Shown: in pieces, positions 1 through 14,821 of the stretch | How positions within the stretch are numbered: position 1 is the stretch's first letter | How the letters are laid out: each line of letters opens with the position of its first letter | Virus record (IMG/VR): IMGVR_UViG_3300008255_000125 | DNA from: an uncultured virus (IMG/VR IMGVR_UViG_3300008255_000125) | Taxonomy: Duplodnaviria; Heunggongvirae; Uroviricota; Caudoviricetes | Length of the DNA stretch: 20,000 nucleotides | Direction: 5' to 3' (one strand) | Notes under the pieces: generated by a model | Databases searched by the model: none | What the model saw: the letters and a program-made list of their open reading frames with translations, nothing else | What the model was told of the DNA's origin: nothing | Made by a program: the position numbers and the translations under genes

Positions 1-789
1 GAATGGCCAATATGCTTAAGAGAATTCGATAATGCTACTAAATCAATAGGAACATTGGGAGGTGGAAATCATTTCATAGAAATTCAAAAAGGATCAGATG
101 GATATATATGGATAATGATTCACTCAGGAAGCAGAAACTTAGGGAAACAAGTAGCAGATCACTACAACAAAATAGCAATAGAATTAAACGAAAAATATCA
201 TTCAAATGTTCCAAAAGAATGGGAATTAGCATTCTTACCAATTAATAGTGAAGAAGGACAATTGTATTTAAAAGAAATGCAATATTGTGTTGATTTCGCT
301 TTAGCCAATAGGAAATTAATGATAGCAAGAATCATGGATATCTTCATCGCAAAAACAAATTGCGCAGGATTCGATGATATTATTAACATAGCACACAATT
401 ATGCGTCACTCGAAAAACACTTCGGACATGAAGTCTGGATTCATAGAAAAGGAGCTACTCTCGCAACTAAAGATACTATCGGCATTATCCCAGGATCACA
501 AGGTACAAAGAGTTATATCGTTAGAGGTAAAGGAAACATATTCTCATTCCAATCATGTTCACATGGAGCTGGTCGTAAAATGGGAAGAAAAGAAGCAGAA
601 AGATCCTTGTCACTCGAAGAAGAAATCAAAAAGTTAGATGATCAAGGTATTATCCACGCGATAAGAGGAGTAAAAGAATTAGACGAAGCCCCAGGAGCTT
701 ACAAAGACATCAATATAGTAATGAAAAACCAAGATGATTTAGTCGACATCATGGTTGAATTAACTCCACTAGGAGTAATTAAAGGTTAA
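1..789 (+). CDS. rtcB: RtcB-family RNA ligase (3'-phosphate/5'-OH), 5'-truncated by the window edge
   Basis: Frame is open from base 1 (EWPICLREFDNATKSIGTLGGGNHFIE), so the TTG at 55 is not the true start. RtcB motifs GTLGGGNHFIE, HSGSR, HNYA, HRKGA, IPGSQG, SHGAGR and DEAPGAYK are present. Confidence 0.97.
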   Translation, partial: EWPICLREFDNATKSIGTLGGGNHFIEIQKGSDGYIWIMIHSGSRNLGKQVADHYNKIAIELNEKYHSNVPKEWELAFLPINSEEGQLYLKEMQYCVDFALANRKLMIARIMDIFIAKTNCAGFDDIINIAHNYASLEKHFGHEVWIHRKGATLATKDTIGIIPGSQGTKSYIVRGKGNIFSFQSCSHGAGRKMGRKEAERSLSLEEEIKKLDDQGIIHAIRGVKELDEAPGAYKDINIVMKNQDDLVDIMVELTPLGVIKG

Positions 790-796
790 TTTTCTA

Positions 797-1112
797 TATA
801 ATGTGTAAGGTTCTGGGCATTTATTATTATTAAAAATAAGTTCGAAACAATAATGTCTGCCACGAGAAATCGTAATTCTCGTGAGACCAAGTTAACTAGA
901 CAGGCGTAGTAATACGTTACATAAGGAAAATTAAAAGATATTTAAATTTATAAAGATTGATCGTCTTTATAAGTTTTTAAAATGTTTAATTAGAATTATG
1001 GTCGAAAGAACGCTTATATTTAATAATAACAAGAAGAATAATAGAAGAGAAAAATTCAAAAGATTTCTCGCTCTATCAAGTATTATTCGGGCCCAGAACC
1101 TTACACATTATA
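797..1112 (+). ncRNA. Putative ~316 nt structured RNA closed by a perfect 22 bp terminal stem
   Basis: 797-818 TATAATGTGTAAGGTTCTGGGC is the exact reverse complement of 1091-1112. Nested stems: 824-840/1013-1029, 861-868/876-883, 904-917 (GUAA tetraloop), 944-957/963-976 (two G-U pairs on + strand), 1036-1043/1081-1088. No ORF in the supplied track. Confidence 0.7.
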
Positions 1113-1128
1113 ATTAATTAATAAATAT

Positions 1129-1308
1129 ATGCCAGAACTAGAAAGTGTTTTAGCAATTAAAGATAAAGATGGAAACTTAATAGCAATCGTATATAACAAC
1201 TTAAAAAAGAAATCACAAATCTTTTATAAAACAAAGGAATGTGGATCAGAAGATATTAAGCAGTTATTAGAAGATTTATTAAATAAACAACAGATAACAC
1301 AACCATAA
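1129..1308 (+). CDS. Small hypothetical protein (59 aa, MPELESVLAIKDKDGNLIAIVY...), absent from ORF track
   Basis: Translated by hand. AT-rich start context like its neighbours; ends 5 nt before lemA. Confidence 0.8.
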   Translation: MPELESVLAIKDKDGNLIAIVYNNLKKKSQIFYKTKECGSEDIKQLLEDLLNKQQITQP

Positions 1309-1313
1309 TTAAA

Positions 1314-1898
1314 ATGAATAAATTTAAAACATCATCAATCGTAATAATAGCAACATTAGTAATAGTAATAATATCTACATTATCATGGGTTAAAAACTCA
1401 TACAATTCAATGATAGATATATCATCACAAGTAGATACAGCTTATGCCTCTATACAAACACAATACCAAAGACGTTTTGATTTAATTCCAAACCTAGCAG
1501 AAGCTACAAAAGGATATATGAATCAAGAACAGAAAGTATTTGGAGATATAGCTGTAGCAAGAACACATTATGCAGGAACTTCAACAGGATCTGCAGAACA
1601 AATAGGAGCAATGGGAGAATATAACTCAGCTCTATCACGTTTAATGGTTATAATGGAAAATTATCCAGATCTAAAATCTAATGAAACTGTCAAGAACCTC
1701 ATGGATGAATTATCTGGAACTGAAAATAGAATAAATGTATCAAGAGAAAGATATAATGAAACAGCTAGAATATATAATGTATTAATCAAATCATTCCCTA
1801 AAAATCTAATTGCTGGGAAATTTGGATTTACAAGTCGTGAATTATTCAAAGCAGATAACTCCGCACAAGAAGCAATTAAAATTAATCTAACAAATTAA
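1314..1898 (+). CDS. lemA: LemA family membrane protein
   Basis: N-terminal TM helix; motifs QYQRRFDLIPNL, ENYPDLKSN, TENRINVSRERYN, FPKNLIA. Confidence 0.96.
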   Translation: MNKFKTSSIVIIATLVIVIISTLSWVKNSYNSMIDISSQVDTAYASIQTQYQRRFDLIPNLAEATKGYMNQEQKVFGDIAVARTHYAGTSTGSAEQIGAMGEYNSALSRLMVIMENYPDLKSNETVKNLMDELSGTENRINVSRERYNETARIYNVLIKSFPKNLIAGKFGFTSRELFKADNSAQEAIKINLTN

Positions 1899-1899
1899 T

Positions 1900-2457
1900 A
1901 TGAAAAAAATATTAAACATCGCAGGATGGATAGTATTAGCAATATTATTCATCTTTATTTTATCAGAAGCACTAAAAGCTATTGATAAAAATAAAATAGA
2001 CCCCAAAACACTTACCACTGGTCCAGCTAACTCAGGAGTAATCATAGATCAAGAAATTCCTAATGTAATAGGGTACATAGATGATTCAGCTAATATACTA
2101 AGTACAGAAACAAAGGTTTCACTTACTGCACTATTAACAGAATTTGCAAAAGGAGACAAAGGAGAAATAGCAATTCTTACAGTTCCTTCTATGAATGGAT
2201 TAACAATAGAAGAATTTGGAATTAGAGTAGGAGAAAAATGGAAAGTAGGAAAAGCTGGAATAGACAATGGAGTAATTATTATTATTGCTTTAAACGAACG
2301 TAAAGTTAGAATTGAAACAGGAAGAGGTGCAAATATCACAGACGCTCAAGCAGGTCAAATTCTTGATAATAAAATGGTTCCCAAACTCAAAAAAGGAGAT
2401 TGGAATGGAGCTGTTCAGGACGGAGTTCAAGAAATTATACTTTTAATGAATAGATAA
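1900..2457 (+). CDS. TPM-domain (YgcG-like) protein lacking the usual C-terminal TM and Gly tail
   Basis: N-terminal TM; YIDDSANILS, EIAILTVPS, WKVGKAGIDNGV, ERKVRIETGRG; adjacent to lemA as is common for this family. Confidence 0.93.
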   Translation: MKKILNIAGWIVLAILFIFILSEALKAIDKNKIDPKTLTTGPANSGVIIDQEIPNVIGYIDDSANILSTETKVSLTALLTEFAKGDKGEIAILTVPSMNGLTIEEFGIRVGEKWKVGKAGIDNGVIIIIALNERKVRIETGRGANITDAQAGQILDNKMVPKLKKGDWNGAVQDGVQEIILLMNR

Positions 2458-2460
2458 TTT

Positions 2461-2631
2461 ATGGATAAATGCCCAAAATGTAAAGAAAAACAAGAAAGCA
2501 AAATGGATAAAATTTATGTAAAGCTTTATGGAAATTGTTGGTCTTGTGATAGAGATCTATGGGAAAAGAAAAAACTTACCCTAGAAGAGTTTGAAAAACG
2601 TGAACAAGAAGCATTAAAAAATACAATCTAA
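2461..2631 (+). CDS. Small putative Zn-binding protein (56 aa; CPKC...CWSC), absent from ORF track
   Basis: Hand translation MDKCPKCKEKQ...GNCWSCDRDLWEKK...; fills the gap between genes exactly. Confidence 0.85.
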   Translation: MDKCPKCKEKQESKMDKIYVKLYGNCWSCDRDLWEKKKLTLEEFEKREQEALKNTI

Positions 2632-2645
2632 TTTAAAAAATAACA

Positions 2646-3089
2646 ATGAATACATATAAAATTGGTCAAGAAGGAATTGATAAAAACTTAATAGAACTTG
2701 GAGATAAAATCGAATTAACAAATCAAACACAAGAAGTTGTAAAATGTATTGAAAGTGGAGTAAAAATGTTAAACATCGATGCAGATCAACTTATGCCAGG
2801 AGATTTAAGTTTTATTAAAAAGCTTGGATTAACAATATCCAACCCAGAAACAGATAAACCTATAGCCTTAGGTGTTGAATATAAAACATTTGGAAGGAAA
2901 CTTGCAGATTGGTTTGAAAGAGAATCAGATGAAGAAGATAATGATGATGATGATAGTTTCTTCTCACACACACCATCATCTGGAGGTTCAATCTTTGGAG
3001 GAAGTAGTGGATTTGGAGGCTTTGGAGGTGGATTCGGAGGCTTTGGAGGTGGATCATTTGGTGGAGGTGGAATGAGTAGAGGATTCTAA
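2646..3089 (+). CDS. Hypothetical protein with acidic linker and GGFGG-rich C-terminal tail
   Basis: Tail GGFGGGFGGFGGGSFGGGGMSRGF resembles the tail of TPM/YgcG proteins; no TM segment. Confidence 0.85.
   Translation: MNTYKIGQEGIDKNLIELGDKIELTNQTQEVVKCIESGVKMLNIDADQLMPGDLSFIKKLGLTISNPETDKPIALGVEYKTFGRKLADWFERESDEEDNDDDDSFFSHTPSSGGSIFGGSSGFGGFGGGFGGFGGGSFGGGGMSRGF
3009..3054 (+). repeat. 21 nt coding tandem repeat, about 2.2 copies
   Basis: GGATTTGGAGGCTTTGGAGGT / GGATTCGGAGGCTTTGGAGGT / GGAT. Confidence 0.85.
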
Positions 3090-3092
3090 TCT

Positions 3093-3416
3093 ATGTCAAA
3101 ATGTGTACCAGATAGATACTTAATTCCAAAAGAATTAAAAAAAACGACACGTTACACAGACGAGCAAAGAGCGAATGTAAAAATTCTTTATGAAAAAGGA
3201 AATAGCATTCGCTCAATATCTCGTGAAATACCAATGAGTAGAAGAATGGTTCAATTCATTCTATTCCCAGAACGTGCATTATTAGCTAAAAAGAACTTTG
3301 CAATACGACAAAAAGATGGAAGATATAGATATGAAACAAAGAAACAAAGTAACTTAGTTCAACAAGTTCGAAGTCGAAAACGTCAAATGTTGGACAAATT
3401 AATAAAAAAAATATGA
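3093..3416 (+). CDS. Basic helix-turn-helix DNA-binding protein
   Basis: YTDEQRANVKILYEKGNSIRSISREIPMSRRMVQFIL fits an HTH pattern. Confidence 0.75.
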   Translation: MSKCVPDRYLIPKELKKTTRYTDEQRANVKILYEKGNSIRSISREIPMSRRMVQFILFPERALLAKKNFAIRQKDGRYRYETKKQSNLVQQVRSRKRQMLDKLIKKI

Positions 3417-4261
3417 AATATCTCATCGGCATAACAGCCTCAAAAAGTAAAACTCAAAACTTCATAAATGATGCATACATAACAGCATTCACAACAGAAG
3501 TTACAACCCCAATAATAATTCCTAATATATTTCAATCAAAAAATGAAATAATAACAAAGGAAGATAAAAAGAAAATGTTAATCGATGTAATAAGATTAGC
3601 TGACACCTTAGACGCATTAGTATTGTCAGGAGGAGCTGATATTAGTCCAGTATTTTATAATAATAAAATAGAAGATTCTTCTTCTTTTAATTATCATAGA
3701 GATTACATGGAAACAGAATTGATTAAAGAATTCGTAAAAAGAAAAAAACCAATAATGGGAATTTGCAGAGGATTCCAATTATTAGGAATATCTTTCAAAT
3801 TAAATTACTTCCAACAAGATATATCAATTGCAGATGAACAGCATAATGGAAATTCAAGTGATATAAACCTAAGAACAGAACCAATGCACAGTGCATTTGT
3901 ATTTGGAGATTTTAGAACTTACTGTGAAAAACAAGGAATGGAAGAAAATAAAATGATAACAAATTCTTGGCATGAACAAGGTTTCACATTAAAACCAGAC
4001 GGAGGAAGAGTGAAAAATAAAGAAATAGAAGCTTACGTAACAGAAAGAGAAGAATTTTCCGATCTTCAAAAGGAAAGAATTAATACGTTTCCAAATATTG
4101 ACATAATAATGGCAACGAATTACGTAATAGAAGGATTTGAACATAAAACATACCCTATATTGGCATTCCAAAATCACCCTGAGGAATACACAAATAGCGT
4201 AGCTATTAATTATTTCATAGAAAAATACTTAATAAAACCAGTCCTTAAAAAGGAGGAATAA
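3413..4261 (+). CDS. Peptidase C26 / gamma-glutamyl-gamma-aminobutyrate hydrolase-like class I glutamine amidotransferase
   Basis: LDALVLSGGADISP, nucleophile elbow GICRGFQ, NSWHEQG and QNHPEE (Cys-His-Glu triad). Confidence 0.93.
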   Translation: MKYLIGITASKSKTQNFINDAYITAFTTEVTTPIIIPNIFQSKNEIITKEDKKKMLIDVIRLADTLDALVLSGGADISPVFYNNKIEDSSSFNYHRDYMETELIKEFVKRKKPIMGICRGFQLLGISFKLNYFQQDISIADEQHNGNSSDINLRTEPMHSAFVFGDFRTYCEKQGMEENKMITNSWHEQGFTLKPDGGRVKNKEIEAYVTEREEFSDLQKERINTFPNIDIIMATNYVIEGFEHKTYPILAFQNHPEEYTNSVAINYFIEKYLIKPVLKKEE

Positions 4262-4263
4262 TC

Positions 4264-4674
4264 ATGGGATTTGATTTAGAAGGCCAAAACGCCAAAAACG
4301 AAGAGGGTGAATACTTTAGAAATAATATTTGGTGGTGGAGAAATCTATGGAGATTTGTAACAATTCACTGCGACAAAATATTAACAGACAAAGAAAAAGA
4401 TTACGGAAACTGGAACGAAGGAAAAAAGATAGTGAAACCAAAAGCTGAGAAAATTGTAAAAAGATTAAAAGAAACAATATCTAATGGGAAAGCATTAGAA
4501 TTTGAAACAGCTGTAAAAAAAGCTCAAGAAAAAGCGAAAAGTAACAATAAAAAATTAAAAGGAGGAGTAACTGATAATGAATATGATTTCAGAGAAAATT
4601 ACCCCTTCACGGTCGAAAACCTAAAAGCATTCATAAAATTCGTAGAAAATAGCGGCGGATTCAGAATCTTTTAA
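4264..4674 (+). CDS. Hypothetical phage-type protein (YFRNNIWWW motif)
   Basis: Tightly packed ORF with typical codon usage; AGGAGG upstream. Confidence 0.85.
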   Translation: MGFDLEGQNAKNEEGEYFRNNIWWWRNLWRFVTIHCDKILTDKEKDYGNWNEGKKIVKPKAEKIVKRLKETISNGKALEFETAVKKAQEKAKSNNKKLKGGVTDNEYDFRENYPFTVENLKAFIKFVENSGGFRIF

Positions 4675-4697
4675 TTACAAATAATTAAAAAATTAAT

Positions 4698-5231
4698 ATG
4701 TGGAAATGCCCAGAATGTAGACATGAAATAGATAGAGTACAATACAATGTAAGTACATCAGGATCTGAATATGGAACAGCTTCATTAGTCGAAAATAATC
4801 CAACAAACACCAGGGACAGAGCAGAAGATTTTGAGCAAGATGATTATGGTGACACAGAATGGAACGATACACCAGAATACACATGTCCAGAATGTGATAA
4901 CAATATAAACTTAGAAGATTTAATCTGGATAAACGAAGACGACGATGAAGATGAAGATGATGATAAACCAAAACCAGAACCAGAGCCAGAAGAAACATTG
5001 CATAATATTATATTACCAGAAAATAATATAGTAAGAACAGATCTACCAAGACAAGCTGATGAATCAATTATTTGTAAAAATAAAAAATGTAAGCACATAT
5101 TCGTAGTCGAAAAAGCAACTAGATATGGATATGGGTTAAGAGATGATGAAGAAACATTTGAATGTCCTAAATGTGCAACATCAAATACTCTTACAGAATA
5201 CAAAGAATTATTATTAAAAGGCTATTTTTAA
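4698..5231 (+). CDS. Highly acidic multi-zinc-ribbon protein
   Basis: CPEC, CPEC, CKNKKC and CPKC cysteine pairs; D/E run and (K/E)P repeat linker. Confidence 0.85.
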   Translation: MWKCPECRHEIDRVQYNVSTSGSEYGTASLVENNPTNTRDRAEDFEQDDYGDTEWNDTPEYTCPECDNNINLEDLIWINEDDDEDEDDDKPKPEPEPEETLHNIILPENNIVRTDLPRQADESIICKNKKCKHIFVVEKATRYGYGLRDDEETFECPKCATSNTLTEYKELLLKGYF

Positions 5232-5232
5232 T

Positions 5233-6273
5233 ATGGTAGATAAAAAACTAAAAATAGATTTAACTCCATTATGGAGTCAACCAACAGATAAATTCATATT
5301 AAGGTTCTTAGATATGAATGAAACACACAAAAGAAAACTAGCTCAACGAATAAAAGATGTAGCTAAACAAAGAACAATAAGAAAACAAACAGGCCCAACA
5401 GTCCAAACTCTATACGAAGCATTAGAAGAAATAAACCCAATAATATTCGGAGAATATAACCAAGAAAACACATACAGAACAGTTATGGGATACAAATCCT
5501 TTAATATGAATGTAGCAAGAACAATAGCAGGTTATTCATTCCATAATTTATGCCAAGCAGTTTATTTAACCACGTGCATAAAAAGAAGATTACGTAAAAA
5601 AGAACTAATGGATATAGCTTATTTGACTTGTCAGGATTGGACAAAAGTAGGAAACTATATAGATCAAAATTACATAGAAGAAATAAATCAAACAAGGAAT
5701 CTAATGCCAGAAGAAGTAGGGATGGATGATGTTCAAAGAGCAAGACAAAATGCTGAAAACAATGGAGCTAATAGAATACCACAAGAAATATTAGATGAAG
5801 GATTATCAGATGAAGCTCAAGAAATATTAAATGGGTTTGTTGATCACGGTCTTGTAACAGACGAAGAACTAAGAACAATGGGAACTCGAGCTGTACTAAT
5901 GGATCCAAGAACAGATAGAAACGATAGAAACATCAGACTCTTAAATGAAAACCTAGAAGTTGTAGAAAGAGAAATAAGATCAATACAACAAAATGATAAC
6001 CCATACCAATATGGAAATACAGAATGGGGACAATATGAAGAAAACAGAAGACAAATGCTTCAGGAATTAGAAGCTGAGAGACTAAGAATGAGAGAAAGAA
6101 TTAGGCTAGAAAGAGGTGTAAGAGTAACCCCAAATCAGTTACATGAGTACCAAGTAAACATACTAGAAGCAGAACCAGCTCCAACAGATTGGGCCTGGAC
6201 AGCTGAGCCTATGGAAATGAGAGTAAGAGGAATAAACCCTGACTTTATGGTCGTAGATGAAGTCGAAGAATAA
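5233..6273 (+). CDS. Hypothetical protein, basic N-half and acidic/coiled-coil C-half ending DEVEE
   Basis: 346 aa ORF tightly packed in the operon; no recognisable family. Confidence 0.85.
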   Translation: MVDKKLKIDLTPLWSQPTDKFILRFLDMNETHKRKLAQRIKDVAKQRTIRKQTGPTVQTLYEALEEINPIIFGEYNQENTYRTVMGYKSFNMNVARTIAGYSFHNLCQAVYLTTCIKRRLRKKELMDIAYLTCQDWTKVGNYIDQNYIEEINQTRNLMPEEVGMDDVQRARQNAENNGANRIPQEILDEGLSDEAQEILNGFVDHGLVTDEELRTMGTRAVLMDPRTDRNDRNIRLLNENLEVVEREIRSIQQNDNPYQYGNTEWGQYEENRRQMLQELEAERLRMRERIRLERGVRVTPNQLHEYQVNILEAEPAPTDWAWTAEPMEMRVRGINPDFMVVDEVEE

Positions 6274-6294
6274 AAATAATTAATAAATAACAAT

Positions 6295-7908
6295 ATGCCA
6301 AATGTAAAAAAAGGATTTGCTTTTAAGGTAGGAGCAGATCCAGAATTCGTTTTAACAATGCAAGGTAGGAAAGTAGACGCTAAACAAACCATGCAAATAG
6401 CCTTAAGTAGAAAAGCAGGATTTAAGGCAGATAGAAATGATATGGGATTCGACGTAGAACCATATGGAAATATCGGTTGGGATGGATCATCATCTACAGC
6501 TGAAATAAGACCTAAGGCATCCTATAAGCCACAAGATGTAGTAAACAACATAGGAGGAATGCTAAAAGGTTTTATAAAACACATTAAATTCTGTGATATG
6601 TCAACAATATCAGAACATAGTTCTGTAGGAGGACATATCCACCTAGAAGTTCCAAAAGGTGAAAAATGGACAACAGAAAAAAAGAATACTCTCCACAGGA
6701 GAATGGCTTCTTTTTATCTACCATTATTAATCACAGAAAATAAAACTAATCTTAATTTAAGATTAAAGCAAAATTACGGAGCATTAAAAGACAGTAGAAT
6801 TGAACAGAAATTCAAATATGAAGATGGATCACCAGGATTCACATATGAATTTAGAGTCCCTTCAGCAGAGTGGTTAACAACACCTAAAATAGCTCAAGCA
6901 ACAATAGCTTATATGGGAGTTGTTTATCATGAAATAATGAAACATCCAAAGAATTTCACAAAATTCAATGATATTGTCTACAAAAGCGATAAACAAGGAG
7001 ATGCACTACAAACATTAGCAATAATGGAATTTGATGTATTAACACAAAGCATCCTAAATAAAGTAAAAAGATATATTAGAACATTCGAAATGTATCCATA
7101 TTATAAAGATGAAATTGAATATCTATTTAACTCAAAACAGGTAGTTAAAGATAAGCAAAAAGCAGATTATAATATTGCCTTAGGGTGGAATTTGATAGGA
7201 AAAACAATACCAAAGAAATCAGAAATCCTAGCTTCAAAGAAAAAAATACAAGGAATAGCAGCTCAAAAGGATTTCGACAACTTAAAATCTGTAATAAACA
7301 TTCACTATAATGCTGATACAAACGTAGCATTATTTGCAGATAGTTTAAAAGATAGAGTTGCCGCTTTCAATTGGAAACTTAAAAATAATTATTACCTATT
7401 CGGAATGAGAAAAGGAATAGATACAATTATTGCAAAAAATCTTAAAAAAGAATTCTTAACAGGACAAAAGGTTATTAAAACAATCCTAGAAAAAGATTAT
7501 ATAGATAGATTATTTGACAAAATGGGAACAAGATTCAATACTAATAGCGGAATGTTAAACAATCCAACATTAGATTTTATGACAGGAAAAATAAAAGACA
7601 TGAGAGAATCAGTCATAGTTATCGGAATACCATACTCAATGAGAATAGAAGAAAATATTAAACCATTCCTAAACTTTATTTGGTCACTAGAGAAAGGAGA
7701 CGTCCAAAAAATGAATAAAAAGGACGAGAACAAATTAATTGATGATACTGAATTACCATTAGAACAAAAAGGAGAAATATATAGAATCCTAACGAAACAA
7801 ATGGAAATAAATCAAGAAGTTGTCATGGATACAGGCTCACATAGTCTTCAAAATCACGAAAGAGCTGTAAACGAAATGATAAATGAATGCCAAACAGAAG
7901 GACAATAA
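6295..7908 (+). CDS. phiEco32-like COOH-NH2 ligase type 2 (glutamine synthetase/GCS fold) with long C-terminal extension
   Basis: GADPEF, DG...AEIRP, GGHIH and YEFR motifs in family order; adjacent to a class II GATase. Confidence 0.88.
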   Translation: MPNVKKGFAFKVGADPEFVLTMQGRKVDAKQTMQIALSRKAGFKADRNDMGFDVEPYGNIGWDGSSSTAEIRPKASYKPQDVVNNIGGMLKGFIKHIKFCDMSTISEHSSVGGHIHLEVPKGEKWTTEKKNTLHRRMASFYLPLLITENKTNLNLRLKQNYGALKDSRIEQKFKYEDGSPGFTYEFRVPSAEWLTTPKIAQATIAYMGVVYHEIMKHPKNFTKFNDIVYKSDKQGDALQTLAIMEFDVLTQSILNKVKRYIRTFEMYPYYKDEIEYLFNSKQVVKDKQKADYNIALGWNLIGKTIPKKSEILASKKKIQGIAAQKDFDNLKSVINIHYNADTNVALFADSLKDRVAAFNWKLKNNYYLFGMRKGIDTIIAKNLKKEFLTGQKVIKTILEKDYIDRLFDKMGTRFNTNSGMLNNPTLDFMTGKIKDMRESVIVIGIPYSMRIEENIKPFLNFIWSLEKGDVQKMNKKDENKLIDDTELPLEQKGEIYRILTKQMEINQEVVMDTGSHSLQNHERAVNEMINECQTEGQ

Positions 7909-7936
7909 TATTATCAATTAATAAATTAAAACAATT

Positions 7937-9397
7937 ATGTGTGGATTAATCGCAGGGTTCAGTACAACTACACCCAAAACAAAAAGCGCTAAGGCTACCA
8001 AAGCTGTAAGTATAAACGATCTAATTATTAATCAATATGAAGATCAATACAATAGAGGTCAAAAAGGATTTGGGATAGTAAGAATAGCTAAAAACGGAAA
8101 AGTAGATCTAGACAGAGCAACGGAACCTCAAAAATTCCTATTAGATCTATATATGAAACCAGCCACTATGATAGTAGCACATCATAGAACACCAACATCA
8201 ACTGAAAATAAAATACAACAAACACACCCAATCAAAGTATCAAATAAACAATTAAAATTTGATTATTATGTAGTTCATAATGGAATGATCAGTAATGATG
8301 AAGAATTAAAAAAGAAACATGAAAAAGAAGGATTTGTATACACAACAAAGTGTATAGAATATGTAAGTAAATATTACAGAAATGATCCAAAGACAAAATG
8401 GAATGATTCAGAAGCAATAGCTATAGAATTAGCTCTATTTATAGAAGGAAAAATAAAAGCAATAAGAACAGATAACTCAGCAGCTTTTATAGTTGTTCAA
8501 GTAAGTAAAAAAGCAGGAATAGCAAAAAGATGCTTCTTTGGAAGAAATGGTTTTAGTAGTGCATTAAACATGTCTAAAACTAAAGGAACATTACTTATCT
8601 CAAGTGAAGGTAAAGGAGATGAAGTTAAAGAAAATAAACTATATTCATTTAACGTAAGAGACGAAAAAATGAAATTAGAATCTAAAGCTATTCCATTCGA
8701 AAAAGAAAAAGTGATAGAAGTTAAAACAACAACATTAACAACAGTTGAAAAAACAGAGCCAACCAAAAAAGAAGTAGAATCATTAACATGTGAACAAGCT
8801 ACTTTAATTCCAATAGAAAACGAACCAATAACCGAAAAAGATAAAGTTGTAACACCATATGAATTAAGAGCGTGGATAGACGTAGACACAGATCCAATCT
8901 TAGATTTAGATTTCAACGCAGATATATTTACAGATAAAAAATATAAAGAAAATCTATGCGAAGAATTTAGCTTTCAGTTAAAAGGTTCAGCTACAAATGA
9001 AATTAAAAGACAAATAACTGAAAAATTAGAAGAAGAAGTTGAAAAAATAACAGAACTAGCTGAAAACTTCAAAGATATTTGCCAAAGCAGTAAGATACAA
9101 GACCCAGAAAGAAATTTCTTCTTAGCTCAAATAGCAAATCAATTCAAAGCAATGGAGGCTATCACAGATATAGCTAGTGAAGAATATATAAAAGCTCAAA
9201 TCATCGAAGATAAAGAAGAAATAGCTGATTATAACGCTGGATTTCATCTAGATGATATGGCATATTCAAAAGAAACAGGAATGCCAGATTATGATGTTGG
9301 TTATAGAAGTAGAGAAGGAGTGACACATATTCACGGAGGTCACAGATATGGACAAGGAATAAGAGATGATGATGATTACGGAATAGATAGATTCTAA
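7937..9397 (+). CDS. Class II (Ntn) glutamine amidotransferase-domain protein with acidic C-terminal region
   Basis: N-terminal MCG nucleophile, RG, HHRTPT, THP, HNG, DSE; no SIS, PRTase or asparagine synthase domain follows. Confidence 0.92.
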   Translation: MCGLIAGFSTTTPKTKSAKATKAVSINDLIINQYEDQYNRGQKGFGIVRIAKNGKVDLDRATEPQKFLLDLYMKPATMIVAHHRTPTSTENKIQQTHPIKVSNKQLKFDYYVVHNGMISNDEELKKKHEKEGFVYTTKCIEYVSKYYRNDPKTKWNDSEAIAIELALFIEGKIKAIRTDNSAAFIVVQVSKKAGIAKRCFFGRNGFSSALNMSKTKGTLLISSEGKGDEVKENKLYSFNVRDEKMKLESKAIPFEKEKVIEVKTTTLTTVEKTEPTKKEVESLTCEQATLIPIENEPITEKDKVVTPYELRAWIDVDTDPILDLDFNADIFTDKKYKENLCEEFSFQLKGSATNEIKRQITEKLEEEVEKITELAENFKDICQSSKIQDPERNFFLAQIANQFKAMEAITDIASEEYIKAQIIEDKEEIADYNAGFHLDDMAYSKETGMPDYDVGYRSREGVTHIHGGHRYGQGIRDDDDYGIDRF

Positions 9398-9402
9398 ATA
9401 AC

Positions 9403-9819
9403 ATGTATCCAACAAAGGAACAAATATTAAAGAAAGATCCGAAAGTAAAATCAATTATCAAAGCAGCGACATTAACTTGGAAAGATAAATATCTAAAAGA
9501 TTGGAAAGAATTACCAAAAGAAGAAAAAGTAGAAAGATTGAAGATCTTAGCACTTTGGCTAAATTGGTCAAATCATAAAAAACACGATACTCTTAAAATA
9601 AAAGTAGGAGATACGTTCCAATATGATCCAAGAAACCAGACTTTATACATAGATGGAGATAATCCAAGTATACTATCAACGTTGCACGAATTAGGTCATC
9701 ATATCAAAGGTTCAAGTGAATTAAACGCATGTAGATGGTCAGTATGGCTATTTATTGAATGCTTCCCAGGATTATATAAAAACCTGAAATGGGATAAACA
9801 TTTATTAGTTAAGAAATAA
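9403..9819 (+). CDS. Small HExxH (zincin-like) putative metallopeptidase
   Basis: STLHELGHH followed by SSE..A, the typical position of a third ligand. Confidence 0.7.
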   Translation: MYPTKEQILKKDPKVKSIIKAATLTWKDKYLKDWKELPKEEKVERLKILALWLNWSNHKKHDTLKIKVGDTFQYDPRNQTLYIDGDNPSILSTLHELGHHIKGSSELNACRWSVWLFIECFPGLYKNLKWDKHLLVKK

Positions 9820-9825
9820 TTAAAA

Positions 9826-9895
9826 TTCAGGTGTGCTTATTCATCCCCCTCTTAAACACGTAATCATGAGGGAGTGGTGTATAAGTACATCTGAA
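9826..9895 (+). other. 70 nt RNA hairpin (processing, stability or regulatory)
   Basis: 9826-9840 pairs with 9881-9895 (15 bp, two G-U pairs); inner CCCTC/GAGGG stem; no U-tract. Confidence 0.7.
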
Positions 9896-9901
9896 CACCA
9901 T

Positions 9902-10247
9902 TATGAACACAATTAATGCCCCGTGATAAAAGGTCGAATATTATTAGAAAAATTAATCATTATGCAACTAAATATACCCTTAGGAAGTTCAATAGAAAGA
10001 AAAGAGGAAAATGAGAATACTGTAAGGATTAAGGTTCCAAATACTAAATTCTGGATATTAGGAGAGAAAGTTTCCAAGTCGAACTGGAAAATGTCTCTAA
10101 TAGATCCTCAATCGAACTATAAGGATGTGATTCATGAAAACATAACAACCAAATCGTTTGCGATATTCTCAAACGTAATTCTCAAAACTCCATTCCCATA
10201 CAAAGGAAAAAGAGCTGAGAATTCAAGTGCTATTAAAAGGTTCATTA
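9902..10247 (+). ncRNA. Putative ~345 nt multi-stem structured RNA overlapping ORF 9923/9962-10291
   Basis: Imperfect closing stem (ATGAAC/GTTCAT, TTAAT/ATTAA); irregular arm 10012-10036/10147-10171; hairpins 10053-10107 and 10177-10223. Confidence 0.5.
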
Positions 10248-10291
10248 ATAAAAATATAAAAACATATGTCAACAGAAAACAAAGAAGTTAG
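9962..10291 (+). CDS. Hypothetical protein (probable ATG start at 9962; track gives GTG at 9923)
   Basis: Long open frame with AT-rich start context, but atypical codons, a 26 nt overlap with the next gene and dense RNA structure. Confidence 0.45.
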   Translation: MQLNIPLGSSIERKEENENTVRIKVPNTKFWILGEKVSKSNWKMSLIDPQSNYKDVIHENITTKSFAIFSNVILKTPFPYKGKRAENSSAIKRFINKNIKTYVNRKQRS

Positions 10292-10724
10292 TACAAAATT
10301 AACAGATAAAGTAGCAGAATACAAATTGATTGCTCGCGAATCTTTAAGAATGGATTTAATAACTCCACGTCTTTCAAAGATTGCTAACGTAGAAGTAACA
10401 ATAGATTCTACTAAAAAGTGTAAAGAAGAGATCGAGCACGAAATACTAGTAGAAAATTACGAAATTTCAAAACTTGATACTGATCACCCAGATTATCTAT
10501 TATTCAAAGAAGAGAAAGAAGAGACAGTAAAAGCTTACACAGAAGAAGTTGAAAACCACGACAAAGCTATCAAAGAATTAGAAGATGTTATCGCTGAGCA
10601 AAAGGAAGGCATCGCTAAAATTGAAAGTGGAGAGACAAAGGTTTCAATGGAAGCTCTTAATGATCTTGTATCAAAAATGATTGAACAAGATGCATTAAAT
10701 GCAATAGCTAAGAAAGCTGAGTAA
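10266..10724 (+). CDS. Acidic coiled-coil protein
   Basis: E/K-rich heptads; followed by a terminator. Confidence 0.88.
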   Translation: MSTENKEVSTKLTDKVAEYKLIARESLRMDLITPRLSKIANVEVTIDSTKKCKEEIEHEILVENYEISKLDTDHPDYLLFKEEKEETVKAYTEEVENHDKAIKELEDVIAEQKEGIAKIESGETKVSMEALNDLVSKMIEQDALNAIAKKAE

Positions 10725-10747
10725 CATCAGTAAAATTTAATAAAAAG

Positions 10748-10786
10748 AAAAAGCCCGAGCGCAGAAATGCCCTTCGGGCTTTTTTT
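10748..10786. terminator. Intrinsic terminator, probably bidirectional
   Basis: AAAAAGCCCGA-GC-GCA-GAAA-TGC-CCT-TCGGGCTTTTTTT: GC-rich stem flanked by A and T tracts. Confidence 0.9.
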
Positions 10787-10876
10787 ATGCTACATTGGAT
10801 GTCAAACGACATTAGATTTTTAAAAAACCATAACCGTTATCTCATGAGGCTGAAAAAATCGACTTTCGTGGGATGG

Positions 10877-10885
10877 TGGTATAAT
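10877..10885 (+). promoter_or_regulatory. Extended -10 promoter (TGnTATAAT)
   Basis: TGGTATAAT lies 9 nt upstream of the in-frame ATG at 10895. Confidence 0.65.
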
Positions 10886-10894
10886 ATAGCTGTA

Positions 10895-11074
10895 ATGAAA
10901 ACAATCGAACATACAAGGGCAAAATATGTCGAGAAAATAATACGCCTAGCTTGGAGTAGCCTAGAAAGCCATCTTGAATATACCTATAAAAAGACATCTG
11001 AAGGAGAAGAGTTCCATAAACAGTGTGTCAAGGAATATATAGAAATAATCAAGAATGCTTCCGAACTCTATTAG
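10895..11074 (+). CDS. Small hypothetical protein (59 aa; start revised from 10787)
   Basis: ATG 10895 follows the promoter, whereas 10787 abuts the terminator; converges on the exonuclease gene. Confidence 0.65.
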   Translation: MKTIEHTRAKYVEKIIRLAWSSLESHLEYTYKKTSEGEEFHKQCVKEYIEIIKNASELY

Positions 11075-11862
11075 GCTGTTATTTTTATAGTCTTTGGATT
11101 CGTAAAATAAGAACCACAATCCTGACATTGGTATTGCATCTTATAACCTCCTTTAACCATTTTATTCTTACTTTTAGTCATATGTGTAGATAAACACAAT
11201 GGATTTGGGCATGTTATACCATCTGGGTTAACATAAACAAAGTCTCCTGATTGTTTTGCGAATGGAAGTATCTTTTTTAGAACTTCATACTGTAAAGAAA
11301 CATCTAATTTACAATACTTTTTCATATATTTCCAAGCTTTTTTATCTCCTTTTTCACAATCAAGCCATAACTGCTTATGTGTACTAAGCTTTCTTCCTAT
11401 ATTTAGAAAATCTGCAATATCATCAAGTTTATTACTTGGCAAATGAAACATACTTTTTGCAATCTTTTTAGTGTCAAATGTTTTATTAACTGGAATTGGA
11501 TCTAACCCATGAGCCAGTAAACGAGTATTAAATACTTTCATATCAAATTGATCGCCATTATGAGCTGAAACAACATCAGCTTGCTTTAAAATAGGACCAA
11601 AGAATTTAACTAACTCTTCGTCATCTAATACTCCTTTTTTATATCCTTTAAAATCATCTTGACCAATAATTTTAACAGGACCATCATTCCACTTATACCC
11701 AACACAAAGAATTTTCTCAAATTCTATTTGTTCAATTATATTGGTTTCCCAAATACTCCCAAAGAAATATCCTTTTCCTGGGCTTGTCTCATAATCTAAC
11801 GACAATATTTTAACATCTTTTTTATCTGGAAAACTTAACTTAATATCTTTTTTCTTTTTCAT
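11071..11862 (-). CDS. DnaQ/RNase H-like (DEDDy) 3'-5' exonuclease with C-terminal Zn ribbon
   Basis: LDYET, AHNGDQFD, KLDDIA, YCKLDV; CPNPLC...CQDC. Confidence 0.9.
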   Translation of the reverse strand: MKKKKDIKLSFPDKKDVKILSLDYETSPGKGYFFGSIWETNIIEQIEFEKILCVGYKWNDGPVKIIGQDDFKGYKKGVLDDEELVKFFGPILKQADVVSAHNGDQFDMKVFNTRLLAHGLDPIPVNKTFDTKKIAKSMFHLPSNKLDDIADFLNIGRKLSTHKQLWLDCEKGDKKAWKYMKKYCKLDVSLQYEVLKKILPFAKQSGDFVYVNPDGITCPNPLCLSTHMTKSKNKMVKGGYKMQYQCQDCGSYFTNPKTIKITA

Positions 11863-11886
11863 ATATTTTATATTATATTTTTAATA

Positions 11887-12858
11887 TTATTCTTCGACTT
11901 CCTTTACTTTTTCATTTCCAAAACCAACACTTCCTCCAAATTCATTATCAGAACTTTTTGGATTACCCGACTCTAATAATGTTAACACTTCAACCACATC
12001 ATCCAGCTTATTATCTAAACAGAGTACAGAAATAAGAGATTCCGCTAAAGCTGCGAAAGATAATCCCTTTGTTTTCTTAACCCACTCATTTAGATTTTCA
12101 GTTTTAGGTAGTTTAGCTTTCAAGAAAGCCACCCTAACCTTTTCACTTGGTGGTAATATTTTATAAATTCTATCAAATCTTCTAGGACGATTGATAATCC
12201 TTCGATCTAATAACTCTGGATAATTTGTTGTAGCGATATTTATAACTCTGTCAATTTGACTGTCTCCATCTAGAATCGACAAAAGTTCAGTATCTCCATA
12301 CTTTTTAATAATCGCATCTATATCTTCAAAAACACAAACAATAGGTCTCTTTGGCTCTACTTGTCTTAAGTTTTTAAGTCCTTGTGTAAAAAAATCAGGG
12401 TTATCACATATAAGCACAATTCCACCACGGTCAACAACATCTTTCATTACTTGCCAAACGATAGATGACTTACCAACTCCTTGTGCTCCATAAAGCATAT
12501 AACCTCTTCTATGTAGGAATCCATGTTTTTTAAAAGAATCTTCCTTTTTCCAGAAATCATCTATTTCATTCAAAAATTTATCTGCCAGCTCTCCTTTAAA
12601 CCGCATTATTTTATCTATCTTAATATATCTACCGACAAAAATTGGTCTATCATCATGTCTATCCACTGTGACCCCGTAACAACCAGGTGGTAATTTTTCG
12701 TGAGTAACAGAGAACGCTTTAAATATTCTAGCTCCTACTGTGCCCCATTGATTTGGTTTTATAATATTTTCTTCTTGCTCAAGCTGTAGATTATACATAT
12801 TGTATACTCCATCATCAGTATCTTCTAAACTTGAACCTCTTGGTGAATTTAAACTCAT
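11887..12858 (-). CDS. AAA-family ATPase
   Basis: RRGYMLYGAQGVGKS (Walker A), CVFEDID (Walker B), ATTNYPELLD...RPRRFD (second region of homology). Confidence 0.93.
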   Translation of the reverse strand: MSLNSPRGSSLEDTDDGVYNMYNLQLEQEENIIKPNQWGTVGARIFKAFSVTHEKLPPGCYGVTVDRHDDRPIFVGRYIKIDKIMRFKGELADKFLNEIDDFWKKEDSFKKHGFLHRRGYMLYGAQGVGKSSIVWQVMKDVVDRGGIVLICDNPDFFTQGLKNLRQVEPKRPIVCVFEDIDAIIKKYGDTELLSILDGDSQIDRVINIATTNYPELLDRRIINRPRRFDRIYKILPPSEKVRVAFLKAKLPKTENLNEWVKKTKGLSFAALAESLISVLCLDNKLDDVVEVLTLLESGNPKSSDNEFGGSVGFGNEKVKEVEE

Positions 12859-12888
12859 ATATATTTTATATTCATAATTAATAATTTT

Positions 12889-13221
12889 TTACTTACGATA
12901 ACCTCTTTTATATGTTCTTCCTCTATGGCAATTGGAACATATAATATCACATTTTTCAATTTCAGCTAATAATCTAGCCCAACTAAAATTACACAATTCC
13001 GCTACCCCCATTTTTTTATCCTCTCCTTCTCTATGGTCAAAATCCATAGCATATGGTGGAAAAAAATTATGACAATCCATACAGGCCACTTTTTTTAATT
13101 CCTGTATGTAACTTCTCTTCTTTTTACGATCTCTTACTTTCTTCTCTACATACAATTCTCTGTTTCTAACATAAGAATTATGTTGAGCTTCCTGTTGCTT
13201 TTGTTTATTTTTATAAGGCAT
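12889..13221 (-). CDS. HNH-type endonuclease
   Basis: CMDC...DFDH...CDIICSNCH with a basic N-terminus. Confidence 0.85.
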   Translation of the reverse strand: MPYKNKQKQQEAQHNSYVRNRELYVEKKVRDRKKKRSYIQELKKVACMDCHNFFPPYAMDFDHREGEDKKMGVAELCNFSWARLLAEIEKCDIICSNCHRGRTYKRGYRK

Positions 13222-13227
13222 GGTTCT

Positions 13228-13236
13228 ATTATATCA
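13228..13236 (-). promoter_or_regulatory. Extended -10 promoter for a leaderless HNH mRNA
   Basis: Minus strand TGATATAAT-AGAACC-ATG. Confidence 0.6.
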
Positions 13237-13259
13237 TACTTCTAGAACCTTACCTAATG

Positions 13260-13332
13260 CTGAAGGCTAGGGAATCGAACCCTACCACGTGCTTTTGGAA
13301 TGCTCGTCGCCAGCCTTGGAACATGGCCTCCA
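13260..13332 (-). tRNA. trnW: tRNA-Trp(CCA), atypical or possibly degenerate
   Basis: Acceptor TGGAGGC/GCCTTCA, T arm TAGGG-TTCGATT-CCCTA, anticodon loop TT-CCA-AA; two A-A mismatches in the anticodon stem; CCA end not encoded. Confidence 0.8.
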
Positions 13333-13361
13333 ATTTGTGGGTTTTTACACCCACGGATATA

Positions 13362-13559
13362 TTAACCTACTACTTCTTCTTCTACTGGGGTCTCAACTAC
13401 TTCTTCAGCCACAGGAGCTTCAGTAGTTTCTTCAACTGGAGCTTCTTCTGCTGTTTCAACAGGAGCCTCAACAACTGTTTCTTCAGCTACTGTTTCTTCT
13501 ACAACTGGAGTTTCAACAACTTCTGGTTGTGTAGCTCCTACATTTAAATCTTGAATCAT
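13362..13559 (-). CDS. 65 aa low-complexity acidic E/V/T/A/P-repeat protein
   Basis: VVETPVVEETVAEETVVEAPVETAEEAPVEE...; no K or R; AT-rich leader with an upstream TGtTATGAT -10-like element. Confidence 0.8.
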   Translation of the reverse strand: MIQDLNVGATQPEVVETPVVEETVAEETVVEAPVETAEEAPVEETTEAPVAEEVVETPVEEEVVG

Positions 13560-13614
13560 ATAATTTTTAGTTTTAGTTTAGTAATTATTCGACCAATATA
13601 TATCATAACACATT

Positions 13615-13836
13615 TTAGAAAAAATCGAAATCAAAATCCTTACTCTTTAAACCCTCAATATAACCTTCTGATTCTCTAATTCTCTTTATTGTGTCTTTCG
13701 CCTGCTTCATTCTCTTTTTAGCATCTCCTCTTGTCTTTCTGTTATATTCCTTTAAATATTCTTTATAATTTCTTCCAGAGTTAATACTATCTCCGCAATT
13801 ATCTTTATTTTTCATAGCTTTGGTTCTATTTTTCAT
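13615..13836 (-). CDS. Small basic hypothetical protein
   Basis: 73 aa ORF packed directly after groES. Confidence 0.7.
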   Translation of the reverse strand: MKNRTKAMKNKDNCGDSINSGRNYKEYLKEYNRKTRGDAKKRMKQAKDTIKRIRESEGYIEGLKSKDFDFDFF

Positions 13837-13843
13837 AAAAATA

Positions 13844-14140
13844 TTACATTACATAAATAATATCCTCCTCTGCGACAAGTGAATAATTCTTACCTTCAAG
13901 CATAAATGGTCTTCCGTATTGAAAGATTACAGTATTTTCTACTTCTACACTTATTGGTTCAAATTCAAACTGATCATGACTCTTATGGAAAAATCTTTTT
14001 CCCTCTCCAACTGCAATTACTTTCCCCGTCATAAAATCCCCCATTTCTTTCTCTTTAGATATGATAATTCCTGAGGCTGTCTTTTCTTCAATATTATCTA
14101 CTTCAACTAAAATTCTATTTCCTAATAACTTTTTATTCAT
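13844..14140 (-). CDS. groES: Co-chaperonin GroES
   Basis: LGNRILV, mobile loop EEKTASGIII, GKVIAVGEG, EEDII. Confidence 0.95.
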   Translation of the reverse strand: MNKKLLGNRILVEVDNIEEKTASGIIISKEKEMGDFMTGKVIAVGEGKRFFHKSHDQFEFEPISVEVENTVIFQYGRPFMLEGKNYSLVAEEDIIYVM

Positions 14141-14158
14141 AAATTTGTATATTCTTAA

Positions 14159-14620
14159 TTAATAATCCCAAAGATCTCTCATATATTTTCCAAATAATGT
14201 GAAACCTTCCTCGACTTTTAAATTGTGTTCTTTTAGTTGCTCTTCGTTTAAATTTGTAGTAAATCTATTATCTACTTCAAACTCATCTTCCCAAGCACTA
14301 TCAAAAGCTAACTCAATTTTCTTTAAAATATTTAACCAAGCTCCTGGGTCTGAAGCAAACTCAATTGGAAGATGCATTCCATGCTCTTCATAATCCTTTA
14401 TAAAACTCTTTAAAGGATAATAAACTTTATCAATAACATAGCTACTTAAATCAGAAACATCATTCTCTGAGTAACCATAATACATTCTTTGTAACCAAAA
14501 TTTTATACCATAAAATATATCAAAGAAAAAATCAGCGAAACTAGATGACTTGTCTTTATTTATTTCTACTTCTTCCTTTGTATTTTCTACTATCTTTTCC
14601 TCTTTTCCTTTATAAATCAT
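14159..14620 (-). CDS. Hypothetical phage-type protein
   Basis: 153 aa ORF between groEL and groES, with its own promoter and structured leader. Confidence 0.85.
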   Translation of the reverse strand: MIYKGKEEKIVENTKEEVEINKDKSSSFADFFFDIFYGIKFWLQRMYYGYSENDVSDLSSYVIDKVYYPLKSFIKDYEEHGMHLPIEFASDPGAWLNILKKIELAFDSAWEDEFEVDNRFTTNLNEEQLKEHNLKVEEGFTLFGKYMRDLWDY

Positions 14621-14645
14621 ATTATTAATTCTTAGTTTATAATTA

Positions 14646-14775
14646 AGTATAAGATCATGGGGGTTTAACAGGTTACGATTTCTCGTTCTCTATCATATTG
14701 ATTATTTTGATAGGCCCCCACGATACAAATACTGGAGCACCGACTAGGTACCATCCGCCAATCCTCTACAAGGAT
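14646..14775 (-). ncRNA. Putative structured 5' leader or small RNA
   Basis: Minus strand: hairpins ATCCT/AGGAT and GGTACC/GGTGCT, then ATCGTGGGGG/CCCCCATGAT (one G-U) enclosing TATCA/TGATA and ACGA-GAAA-TCGT, with outer AGTAT/ATACT. Confidence 0.6.
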
Positions 14776-14781
14776 AATTCC

Positions 14782-14810
14782 ATTCTATACCTTTCTAAAG
14801 AACTTGTCAA
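14782..14810 (-). promoter_or_regulatory. Sigma70-type promoter
   Basis: TTGACA-17 nt-TAGAAT. Confidence 0.85.
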
Positions 14811-14821
14811 GTGTTTAGCGA

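Follow-up and report, generated by a model that had tools for sequence, protein, structure and literature searches.

Two separate predicted RNAs, one founding a small RNA family, and a possibly coincidental 14-nucleotide identity between them in an uncultured AT-rich phage

The DNA analyzed here (hereafter the window) was a 20,000-nt stretch of an uncultured AT-rich phage (31.5% G+C; Caudoviricetes, IMG/VR record IMGVR_UViG_3300008255_000125), for which a first-pass annotation had proposed three distant structured elements, united by exact motifs and a common architecture into one RNA family or regulon. Two of the three, element 1 (downstream of rtcB, + strand) and element 3 (between groEL and a gene of unknown function named here gene X, - strand; Table 1), appear to be real, conserved, sense-strand structured RNAs without a family in Rfam, whereas element 2 is part of a protein-coding gene. 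Comparison with relatives indicates that elements 1 and 3 are not homologous and represent two separate RNAs. As to the 14 letters that they share, we lean slightly towards a coincidence between two independent short hairpins, and not a shared recognition site.

Two related records were used for comparison. The sole close relative, G001, is a collinear IMG/VR record of 73.7 kb with 65-82% DNA identity across matched segments, and a remoter one, G007 (101 kb, rated 100% complete), encodes RtcB and GroEL proteins 75% and 63% identical to those of the window, respectively.

Element 3 is predicted to be a three-stem RNA that lies about 50 nt past its promoter, after groEL. The minimum free energy (MFE) fold of its 81-nt core corresponded to this three-stem structure (-23.3 kcal/mol), with the loop sequence AAUAAUCAAUA and a conserved UGUUAAA strand after P3. 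A block of 45 nt, comprising the P2 loop, P3 and the joining strand, was invariant between the window and G001, while its flanks were 75-80% identical; within the stems, four double and two single changes separated both sequences, and pairing was always kept (40/40 cells paired). A model built from these two copies (R1) detected a third one in G007, at the same site after groEL and promoter (50 bits, E 5e-10), and TTGACAAGT plus the -10 box were retained in the promoters of G001 and G007. Two more copies were found with a degenerate element 3 pattern, on contigs in metagenome-assembled genomes (MAGs) of Saccharibacteria and Zambryskibacteria (47 and 77 bits, respectively), giving a homologue set of five sequences (three phage records and two contigs in MAGs of Candidate Phyla Radiation (CPR) bacteria).

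In the five-sequence alignment, which was fitted to the model and leans towards structure, 97 of 99 cells were paired and 12 of the 20 pairs changed on both sides (24 cells), a result reached by none of 500 shuffles; slid controls showed 38-46% of paired cells. All six pairs of P2 were swapped among homologues. P3 was ACGA/UCGU in three copies and AUGA/UCAU in the other two (pair 46-55 being C-G or U-A), and the loop was GAAA in all five, so the tetraloop hairpin that the first-pass annotation had drawn here stands as a real structure, and it is a selected structural part of the element. The G-U pair found at position 4 of P1 in four of the five copies fixes the strand of the RNA. When each homologue was folded singly with its flanks, the MFE structure showed the same core inside an outer helix, which reached about 20 bp in the two MAG contigs. 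Taken as comparative evidence, these patterns support well a new family of small RNAs (about 85-105 nt) with five members.

Each record contained one copy of element 3. Within IMG/VR, the degenerate pattern was found in G001 and G007 only, and a 25-mer of the element in G001 only; a search with the element 3 model in a sample of the phylum of G045 was positive for one out of 151 genomes, G045 itself. Among GenBank phages, element 3 retrieved only matches of 23-30 nt at E values of 0.08 or more, and the homologous loci (L075, L053 and L084) had no match in Rfam at E up to 1. Weak matches of R1 and of the five-sequence model (R3) in G001 (L069:887-952, 23-25 bits; L070:6365-6435, 17-21 bits) lacked P1 and had broken pairs, and were not counted.

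The genomic context of element 3 was variable. In the window and G001 it is followed by gene X and then groES, while in the MAG contigs it precedes unrelated proteins of 214 and 400 aa, followed by an S49 peptidase; no relationship was detected among the proteins downstream in the different contexts (BLASTP E 2 to 33). Since the same RNA precedes unrelated genes in other records, element 3 is not tied to one gene. In G007, a gene for a ROS/MucR-type zinc-finger protein is inserted between element 3 and gene X (L075 443-1315). The two MAG contigs (L088, Saccharibacteria; L089/L092, Zambryskibacteria) bear phage-like genes, including those for an S49 head-maturation protease, HNH endonucleases and a MazF-like protein, and showed no DNA similarity to the window at E up to 1e-5. 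The presence of element 3 homologues in CPR-MAG contigs with phage-like genes is a hint that this phage group infects CPR bacteria.

Riboswitch aptamers can be built on a three-way junction, as in the purine class, and element 3 is like them in its closing helix and two hairpins, in the invariance of its loops and joining strands, and in lying close to a promoter. Such a compact junction fold with covarying stems, lying between a promoter and a gene, resembles an aptamer core, and a ligand could be envisaged to control the X-groES operon. This function is nevertheless very unlikely: the downstream genes are unrelated in three contexts, neither a terminator nor a helix masking the start site was found after the element, no expression platform was visible, and no riboswitch or other Rfam family matched it.

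Element 1, about 320 nt long, occupies the gap after rtcB, a region that folds at -95.6 kcal/mol (z -9.75) and that none of 100 shuffles equalled. Its homologue in G001 was 81% identical over 220 nt and represented the only convincing match among 52 RtcB-encoding IMG/VR loci. The closing helix P1 was retained in G001 with two U-A to U-G changes, and since these allow pairing on the + strand RNA only, the RNA strand is taken to be +. P2 was changed on both strands in G001 yet kept its pairing (ATTAATTTAC with GTAAATTAAT, by eye), and the two-sequence consensus contained 58 pairs, six of them compensatory. A covariance model of the central 101 nt (R2) matched G001 alone among 43 records, with one further match at E = 0.09. 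An exact 22-mer of P1 had no match in IMG/VR loci, and a 16-mer of the element was found in G001 plus five unrelated loci ascribed to chance. No promoter-like or terminator-like sites were found flanking element 1 on the + strand. Rfam 15 yielded no match over the whole window at E up to 1, and for 780-1135 and 14615-14830 at E up to 10 it returned only noise from small nucleolar and long non-coding RNA families (9-15 bits, against cut-offs of 43-127). Taken together, the comparison points to a real, conserved, sense-strand structured RNA, previously undescribed.

A tRNA gene was located right after rtcB in three relatives (L006, L013 and L014), where the window has element 1, and G001 carries 22 tRNA genes, which together suggest that the site of element 1 is the RNA neighbourhood of the phage. 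Two other identities were considered for this element and rejected. A mobile miniature inverted-repeat element was discarded given its single copy in the window and in G001 and arm differences that are G-U-compatible on one strand, and a T-loop reading of GUUCGAAAC was discarded given that it forms no T stem and has C in place of the key A in G001 (by eye). In another RtcB phage (L002 3789-4186, also L003), the region of about 400 nt directly after rtcB is free of genes and has a TTGACA-17-TATATC promoter of its own. Its predicted fold (-116 kcal/mol) is closed by a long helix (AUUAUGUUCCUUA with UAAGGAACAUAAU) and includes several GNRA loops. Rfam gave no match at gathering score, and the region may represent one more large RNA occupying this position in phage genomes.

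Several known RNAs were compared with element 1. RNase III cuts long terminal processing helices, such as rRNA precursor stalks and the intercistronic sites of phage T7. The ends of element 1 form a perfect helix of 22 bp; the element lies within a polycistronic region and lacks a promoter or terminator of its own. P1 has the attributes of an RNase III-type helix (uninterrupted, about 20 bp or more, at the flanks of the RNA); the outer helix of about 20 bp in the MAG copies of element 3 is comparable. In contrast, T7 sites are simple hairpins and not folded domains of 270 nt, and cleavage of element 1 is something that we infer. GOLLD (RF02032) and ROOL are large structured phage RNAs encoded next to genes for tRNAs and RNA repair. 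As with these, element 1 is a large helix-rich RNA with GNRA loops, here beside rtcB in a tRNA-rich phage, but it is much smaller, was found in two genomes only, and matched no Rfam model at E up to 10, GOLLD and ROOL included. The genes of bacterial Y RNAs (YrlA) are reported to lie near Ro60 and often near rtcB (PMC4201824). Element 1 likewise appears to be non-coding, with ends paired in a long helix and an RNA-repair neighbourhood. However, a TROVE/Ro60 gene (PF05731) was detected in neither G001 nor G007 (controls were positive), the genes upstream of rtcB in G001 were not TROVE, and no tRNA-like domain was found in element 1 (ARAGORN; no tRNA or Y RNA match in 780-1135). The GNCGAAN0-1G motif, moreover, is present a single time in the window copy (at about 999-1007, GGUCGAAAG) and is not kept in G001 (by eye). 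A Y RNA identity was excluded because of the lack of both a TROVE gene and a tRNA-like domain. For element 1, the nearest analogies are RNase III stalks and large phage RNAs by tRNA genes; for element 3, they are leaders of the junction type.

The 14-mer ACGAGAAATCGTAA has exactly two copies in the window, at 862-875 (+) and 14673-14686 (-), as the first-pass annotation had placed them, and allowing up to two mismatches added none. Its structural role differs between the two RNAs. In element 3 the motif is part of the MFE fold, as a true GNRA hairpin, while in element 1 these letters mainly serve in a stronger stem, as one of its strands and its loop: 862-875 constitutes the 5' strand plus loop of P3, and the alternative 4-bp hairpin ACGA-GAAA-UCGU would occupy 862-873. 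The long CACGAGAA/TTCTCGTG stem does exist and excludes the short hairpin. For the window and G001, respectively, its predicted energy was -15.6 and -18.8 kcal/mol, versus -6.3 and -8.8 for the short form with a different outer pairing, so that the long stem is favoured by 9-10 kcal/mol. Four substitutions distinguish the P3 region of both genomes. Two of them retain the short-hairpin pair (A-U to U-A), one of these producing a U-U mismatch in the long stem, and the other two retain the long-stem pair (A-U to G-C), one of these turning GAAA into GGAA, which is still GNRA. The long form thus counts one compensatory pair and one U-U mismatch with respect to G001, and the short form one compensatory pair. 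The competition between both folds that the first-pass annotation had described is consequently present, and the two states that it had deduced from it are possible but unproven; because there are just two sequences, they do not decide between a switch and chance. By these energies, the 4-bp GNRA form would be at most a minor or transient state in element 1. A GNRA tetraloop kept while its stem covaries is seen in P3 of element 3 and in P4 of element 1; for the short hairpin of element 1, the changes (GAAA to GGAA, A-U to U-A) come from two sequences only, with the stronger stem competing.

The motif region of element 1 also lies within an 18-codon arginine-rich open reading frame (ORF), raising the question of a small gene, with the structure as a by-product or as a leader-peptide attenuator. 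The frame is open in both genomes (18 codons in the window, 19 in G001), and the context of its ATG at 853, AAUAAUG, resembles the starts of real genes in this region (by eye). An open frame of 18 codons is, however, common by chance, and all eight base differences between the genomes are non-synonymous, altering six of 18 residues, which argues against a peptide at 853-909. Moreover, half of these differences contribute to compensatory RNA pairs (one in P3 and three in P4), and a gene at this place is extremely unlikely.

The third proposed element, around position 10174, is ordinary coding sequence and a member of no RNA family. G001 aligns with 9894-10708 at 77% identity, and the protein encoded by 9962-10291 has a counterpart there, aligned across about 100 residues with conservative changes. 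The DNA differences in this ORF were distributed as 17/11/39 over codon positions 1/2/3. The 10-mer CGTAATTCTC, found at 871-880 and 10174-10183 as previously noted, with a one-mismatch copy at 10452-10461 (-), was not conserved (AACGTAATTCTCAAA in the window vs. AGTATGATATTGAAG in G001). The proposed spacing of closing stems, 16-25 nt before the next ATG, holds for element 1 (16 nt, ATG at 1129) and element 3 (25 nt, ATG at 14620). In the same region, the gene at 9962-10291 overlaps the start of the gene at 10266-10724 by 26 nt (10266-10291), an overlap that is 7 nt in G001 owing to a 1-nt indel. A near-perfect hairpin of 70 nt lies as an insertion between the genes at 9403-9819 and 9962-10291 (9826-9895); it is missing in G001, where the flanks are joined directly, and a contig from run X4 skips 9819-9929, with G001-like letters in between.

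Motif frequencies were evaluated on the 20-kb window and the relatives, and genome-wide counts refer to these. Allowing one mismatch, the 10-mer had three matches vs. 1.02 expected, a number equalled in 19 of 200 shuffles, and when only elements 1 and 3 were shuffled, some common 10-mer appeared in 3661 of 20000; the 10-mer match is at chance level. The window contained 32 repeated 14-mers vs. 10.1 ± 4.5 in shuffled windows; the inverted repeat of 22 bp and a tandem repeat contributed most of the 32, and about a dozen were unrelated. Over the whole window, a 14-mer repeat is therefore not unusual; the unusual aspect of this one is that both copies fall within 951 intergenic nt, which is unlikely but not extreme.

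Model searches provided no link between elements 1 and 3. With filters off, the element 3 models gave no match in 790-1128, either for R1 (E up to 10) or for R3 (E up to 5), and the element 1 model R2 matched no element 3 locus. In G001, local alignment of the two elements produced no significant score (P = 0.84); the top score of the window (30, P = 0.002) corresponded to an A/T-rich stretch and not to the 14-mer. The two motif copies of G001 (ACGTGGAAACGTAA vs. ACGAGAAATCGTCA) match in 10 of 14 letters, with ACG...CGU common to all four hairpin copies of the window and G001. Between these genomes, 3 of the 12 hairpin letters changed in element 1 and none of the 12 in element 3, where L089 was also identical. 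G007 has element 3 and a single hairpin of the pattern (AYGWGNRAWCRT), with no match to the element 1 model. Considering that the two RNAs have different sizes, folds and contexts, and that the motif plays a different role in each, the common architecture claimed by the first-pass annotation was not borne out. The motif was not conserved as such in relatives, and a three-member regulon is not supported as stated and is not carried forward.

The coincidence that we favour has to be weighed against a number of observations that oppose it. Any 14-mer common to two different intergenic stretches, in either orientation, appeared in 99 of 5000 shuffles; a 14-mer common to elements 1 and 3 in sense orientation appeared in 26 of 20000. 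Both figures were computed after the fact, and they still keep a real link alive. Of the 10 four-bp GNRA hairpins on both strands of the window, three are intergenic, all of them in elements 1 and 3, and two of these are identical. The pattern ACGW-GNRA-WCGT, itself derived from these data, was confined to the two RNAs both in the window (0.01 expected) and in the 73.7 kb of G001. In G001 the short hairpin of element 1 persists through an exchange of A-U for U-A, its loop still being GNRA (GGAA), a change that selection on a small hairpin would be expected to give and that would arise by chance with a probability of about 0.1 by our estimate. To this should be added that element 1 is known from two sequences, and that the RNase III step and the trans-acting factor step of the explanation given below are inferences.

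Much of this evidence would suit a phage or host factor that recognises an ACGW-GNRA-WCGU hairpin in both RNAs, coupling the rtcB-side RNA and the leader of the groES operon, in two convergent transcription units, and shifting the balance from long stem to short hairpin upon binding in element 1. The boxB hairpins in nutL and nutR of phage lambda, which act in N-dependent antitermination, offer the nearest precedent: they are also short hairpins with a GNRA-type loop, near-identical and in sense orientation in two transcription units of one phage, and here one copy, that of element 3, lies just past a strong promoter (TTGACA-17-TAGAAT). The identical 14-mer in two intergenic RNAs, both in sense, the absence of the pattern elsewhere in the window and G001, the compensatory swap with GNRA loop in element 1, the hairpin that is invariant or covarying in all five element 3 homologues, and the promoter-proximal position of element 3 are consistent with such a reader. 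Nonetheless, the identity is lost in G001 (10/14), where the hairpin of element 1 drifts and that of element 3 is frozen, and G007, rated complete, has one such hairpin and no element 1. Within element 1 the long stem is better by 9-10 kcal/mol and no promoter-like site precedes it on the + strand, and the hairpin of element 3 is no free-standing site, being embedded in a larger, conserved fold with three stems. No candidate binding protein was identified, nor a boxA-like partner or an N-like protein, although no search for these two was made. On the whole, a common reader is unlikely. If the hairpin of one RNA had been copied into the other without shared function, by duplication or through a short tract of recombination before the window and G001 diverged, and had later drifted in element 1, this would likewise account for 14/14 identity in the window, 10/14 in G001 and ACG...CGU in all four copies, and phage genomes are mosaic, as exemplified by the 70-nt hairpin inserted at 9826-9895 in the window only. 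But similarity does not extend past the 14 letters, there is no element 1 outgroup to give a direction, and 14 nt is too short to separate descent from chance; we regard this origin as quite unlikely.

Under the preferred reading, coincidence between two independent hairpins, element 3 would be a self-contained RNA module, acting as a small RNA or as a leader recognised by a trans-acting factor or a ligand, and its GAAA loop probably makes a contact within the fold or with a partner. Element 1 would be transcribed together with rtcB and then cut out or stabilised at its 22-bp terminal helix, in the manner of RNase III substrates. The positions of all these features are listed in Table 1.

Table 1. 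Positions of the predicted RNA features and genes in the window and of tRNA genes in related loci
Feature	Coordinates	Strand	Remarks
Element 3 promoter, TTGACA, 17 nt, TAGAAT	14782-14810	-	Sigma-70-type; 11/12 consensus, second best in window
Element 3 with outer helix P0	14646-14733	-	P0: AGUAU 14733-14729 with AUACU 14650-14646; 25 nt before ATG 14620
Element 3 core	14654-14724	-	P1: 14724-14715 with 14663-14654
Element 3 P2	14713-14708 with 14695-14690	-	12-nt loop AAAUAAUCAAUA
Element 3 P3, ACGA-GAAA-UCGU	14686-14675	-	
Element 3 joining strand J3/1, AACCUGUUAAA	14674-14664	-	
Second 14-mer copy	14673-14686	-	P3 of element 3 plus first two bases of J3/1
Element 1, about 320 nt	797-1112	+	3' of rtcB
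Element 1 closing helix P1, 5' strand	797-818	+	22-nt arm, 100% complementary to 1091-1112
Element 1 closing helix P1, 3' strand	1091-1112	+	Ends 16 nt before ATG 1129
Element 1 P2, second long A/U-rich helix, 5' strand	824-845	+	Pairs with about 1013-1035 in MFE fold
Element 1 hairpin P3, 12-bp long form	855-887	+	GUCU..CACGAGAA, loop AUCGUAA, UUCUCGUG AGAC
Element 1 hairpin P4, GUAA tetraloop	904-917	+	In G001 3/4 pairs changed on both sides, GUAA kept
Element 1 P5, long A/U-rich hairpin	920-1003	+	Apical GAUUGAUCGUC conserved
Element 1 extra 3' domain, about 55 nt	1036-1088	+	Window only; 56-column gap in G001 alignment
18-codon arginine-rich ORF across motif, MSATRNRNSRETKLTRQA	853-909	+	ATG 853 to TAG 909
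'Element 2', 109-codon gene	9962-10291	+	Contains CGTAATTCTC at 10174-10183; protein conservation in G001
rtcB, 3' part	1-789	+	
LemA and TPM-domain genes	1314-2457	+	
groES	13844-14140	-	
Gene X, 153 aa, function unknown	14159-14620	-	
groEL	14822-16471	-	
tRNA genes after rtcB	L006 3807-3877; L013 3811-3883; L014 3804-3877		

Regarding the remaining content of the window, many genes of unknown function follow the LemA and TPM-domain genes on the + strand, up to 11074, and these converge with - strand genes for a DNA polymerase exonuclease subunit, an HNH endonuclease, groES, gene X, groEL, a WDGH-domain protein and a helicase. Intergenic DNA totals 951 nt, the largest gaps being 790-1128 and 14621-14821. 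The LemA/TPM-domain genes and their neighbours (1288-3105) have no counterpart in G001, where a 31-codon hydrophobic ORF lies immediately 3' of element 1 and the small gene after element 1 directly joins the homologue of 3106 onward. A sigma-70 promoter with 12/12 consensus (TTGACA-18-TATAAT) was located at 18601-18630 (-), inside the 69-nt gap 18564-18632. No tRNA genes were detected in the window (ARAGORN); a tRNA-Trp gene of G001 (55715-55785) corresponds in position to the neighbourhood of the HNH endonuclease (12889-13221).

Searches for further relatives were largely negative. GenBank phages had no match to the whole window (megablast), to 780-1130 (blastn), or to a 537-aa protein and protein X (tblastn). 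Within IMG/VR, protein X retrieved no locus as a single sequence and G001 only as an alignment, and GroEL retrieved seven loci, five of them at 40-42% identity and without element 3. The only metagenome contig matching the 537-aa protein was the one that is G001. Six DNA sequencing runs and no RNA run were among the matches listed for the stretch. Contigs of four runs (X2, X3, X4 and X6) aligned to 780-14840 contained relatives, those of X2 spanning 960-1549 (35 differences) and 14072-14840 (53 differences); their best-supported rows showed no letter differences within either RNA except a 1-nt deletion at 829, and provided no new alleles. No publication on the RNAs of element 1 or element 3 was found in the literature.

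Both RNAs are new to Rfam and belong to a kind already known, that of structured phage non-coding RNAs. As a bolder conjecture, which we consider rather unlikely, ACGW-GNRA-WCGU would be the landing site of one trans-acting factor reading two unrelated RNAs (the leader of a co-chaperonin operon and a processed RNA made with the RNA ligase RtcB) and flipping a switch in element 1 between the 12-bp stem and the 4-bp hairpin, as a nut-like control in phages that probably infect CPR bacteria; to our knowledge, no gene regulation of this kind is known for these bacteria. If one factor did read the hairpin, a minority reading on present evidence, a phage would have a link between RNA repair and the expression of chaperonin. 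As far as we know, regulation at the RNA level is essentially uncharted in these phages and their hosts. Element 1 is the second and larger of the two RNAs, placed after rtcB where a tRNA gene lies in related phages, and element 3 is shared by phage and mobile contigs that are tied to bins of Saccharibacteria and Zambryskibacteria and dissimilar in other respects.

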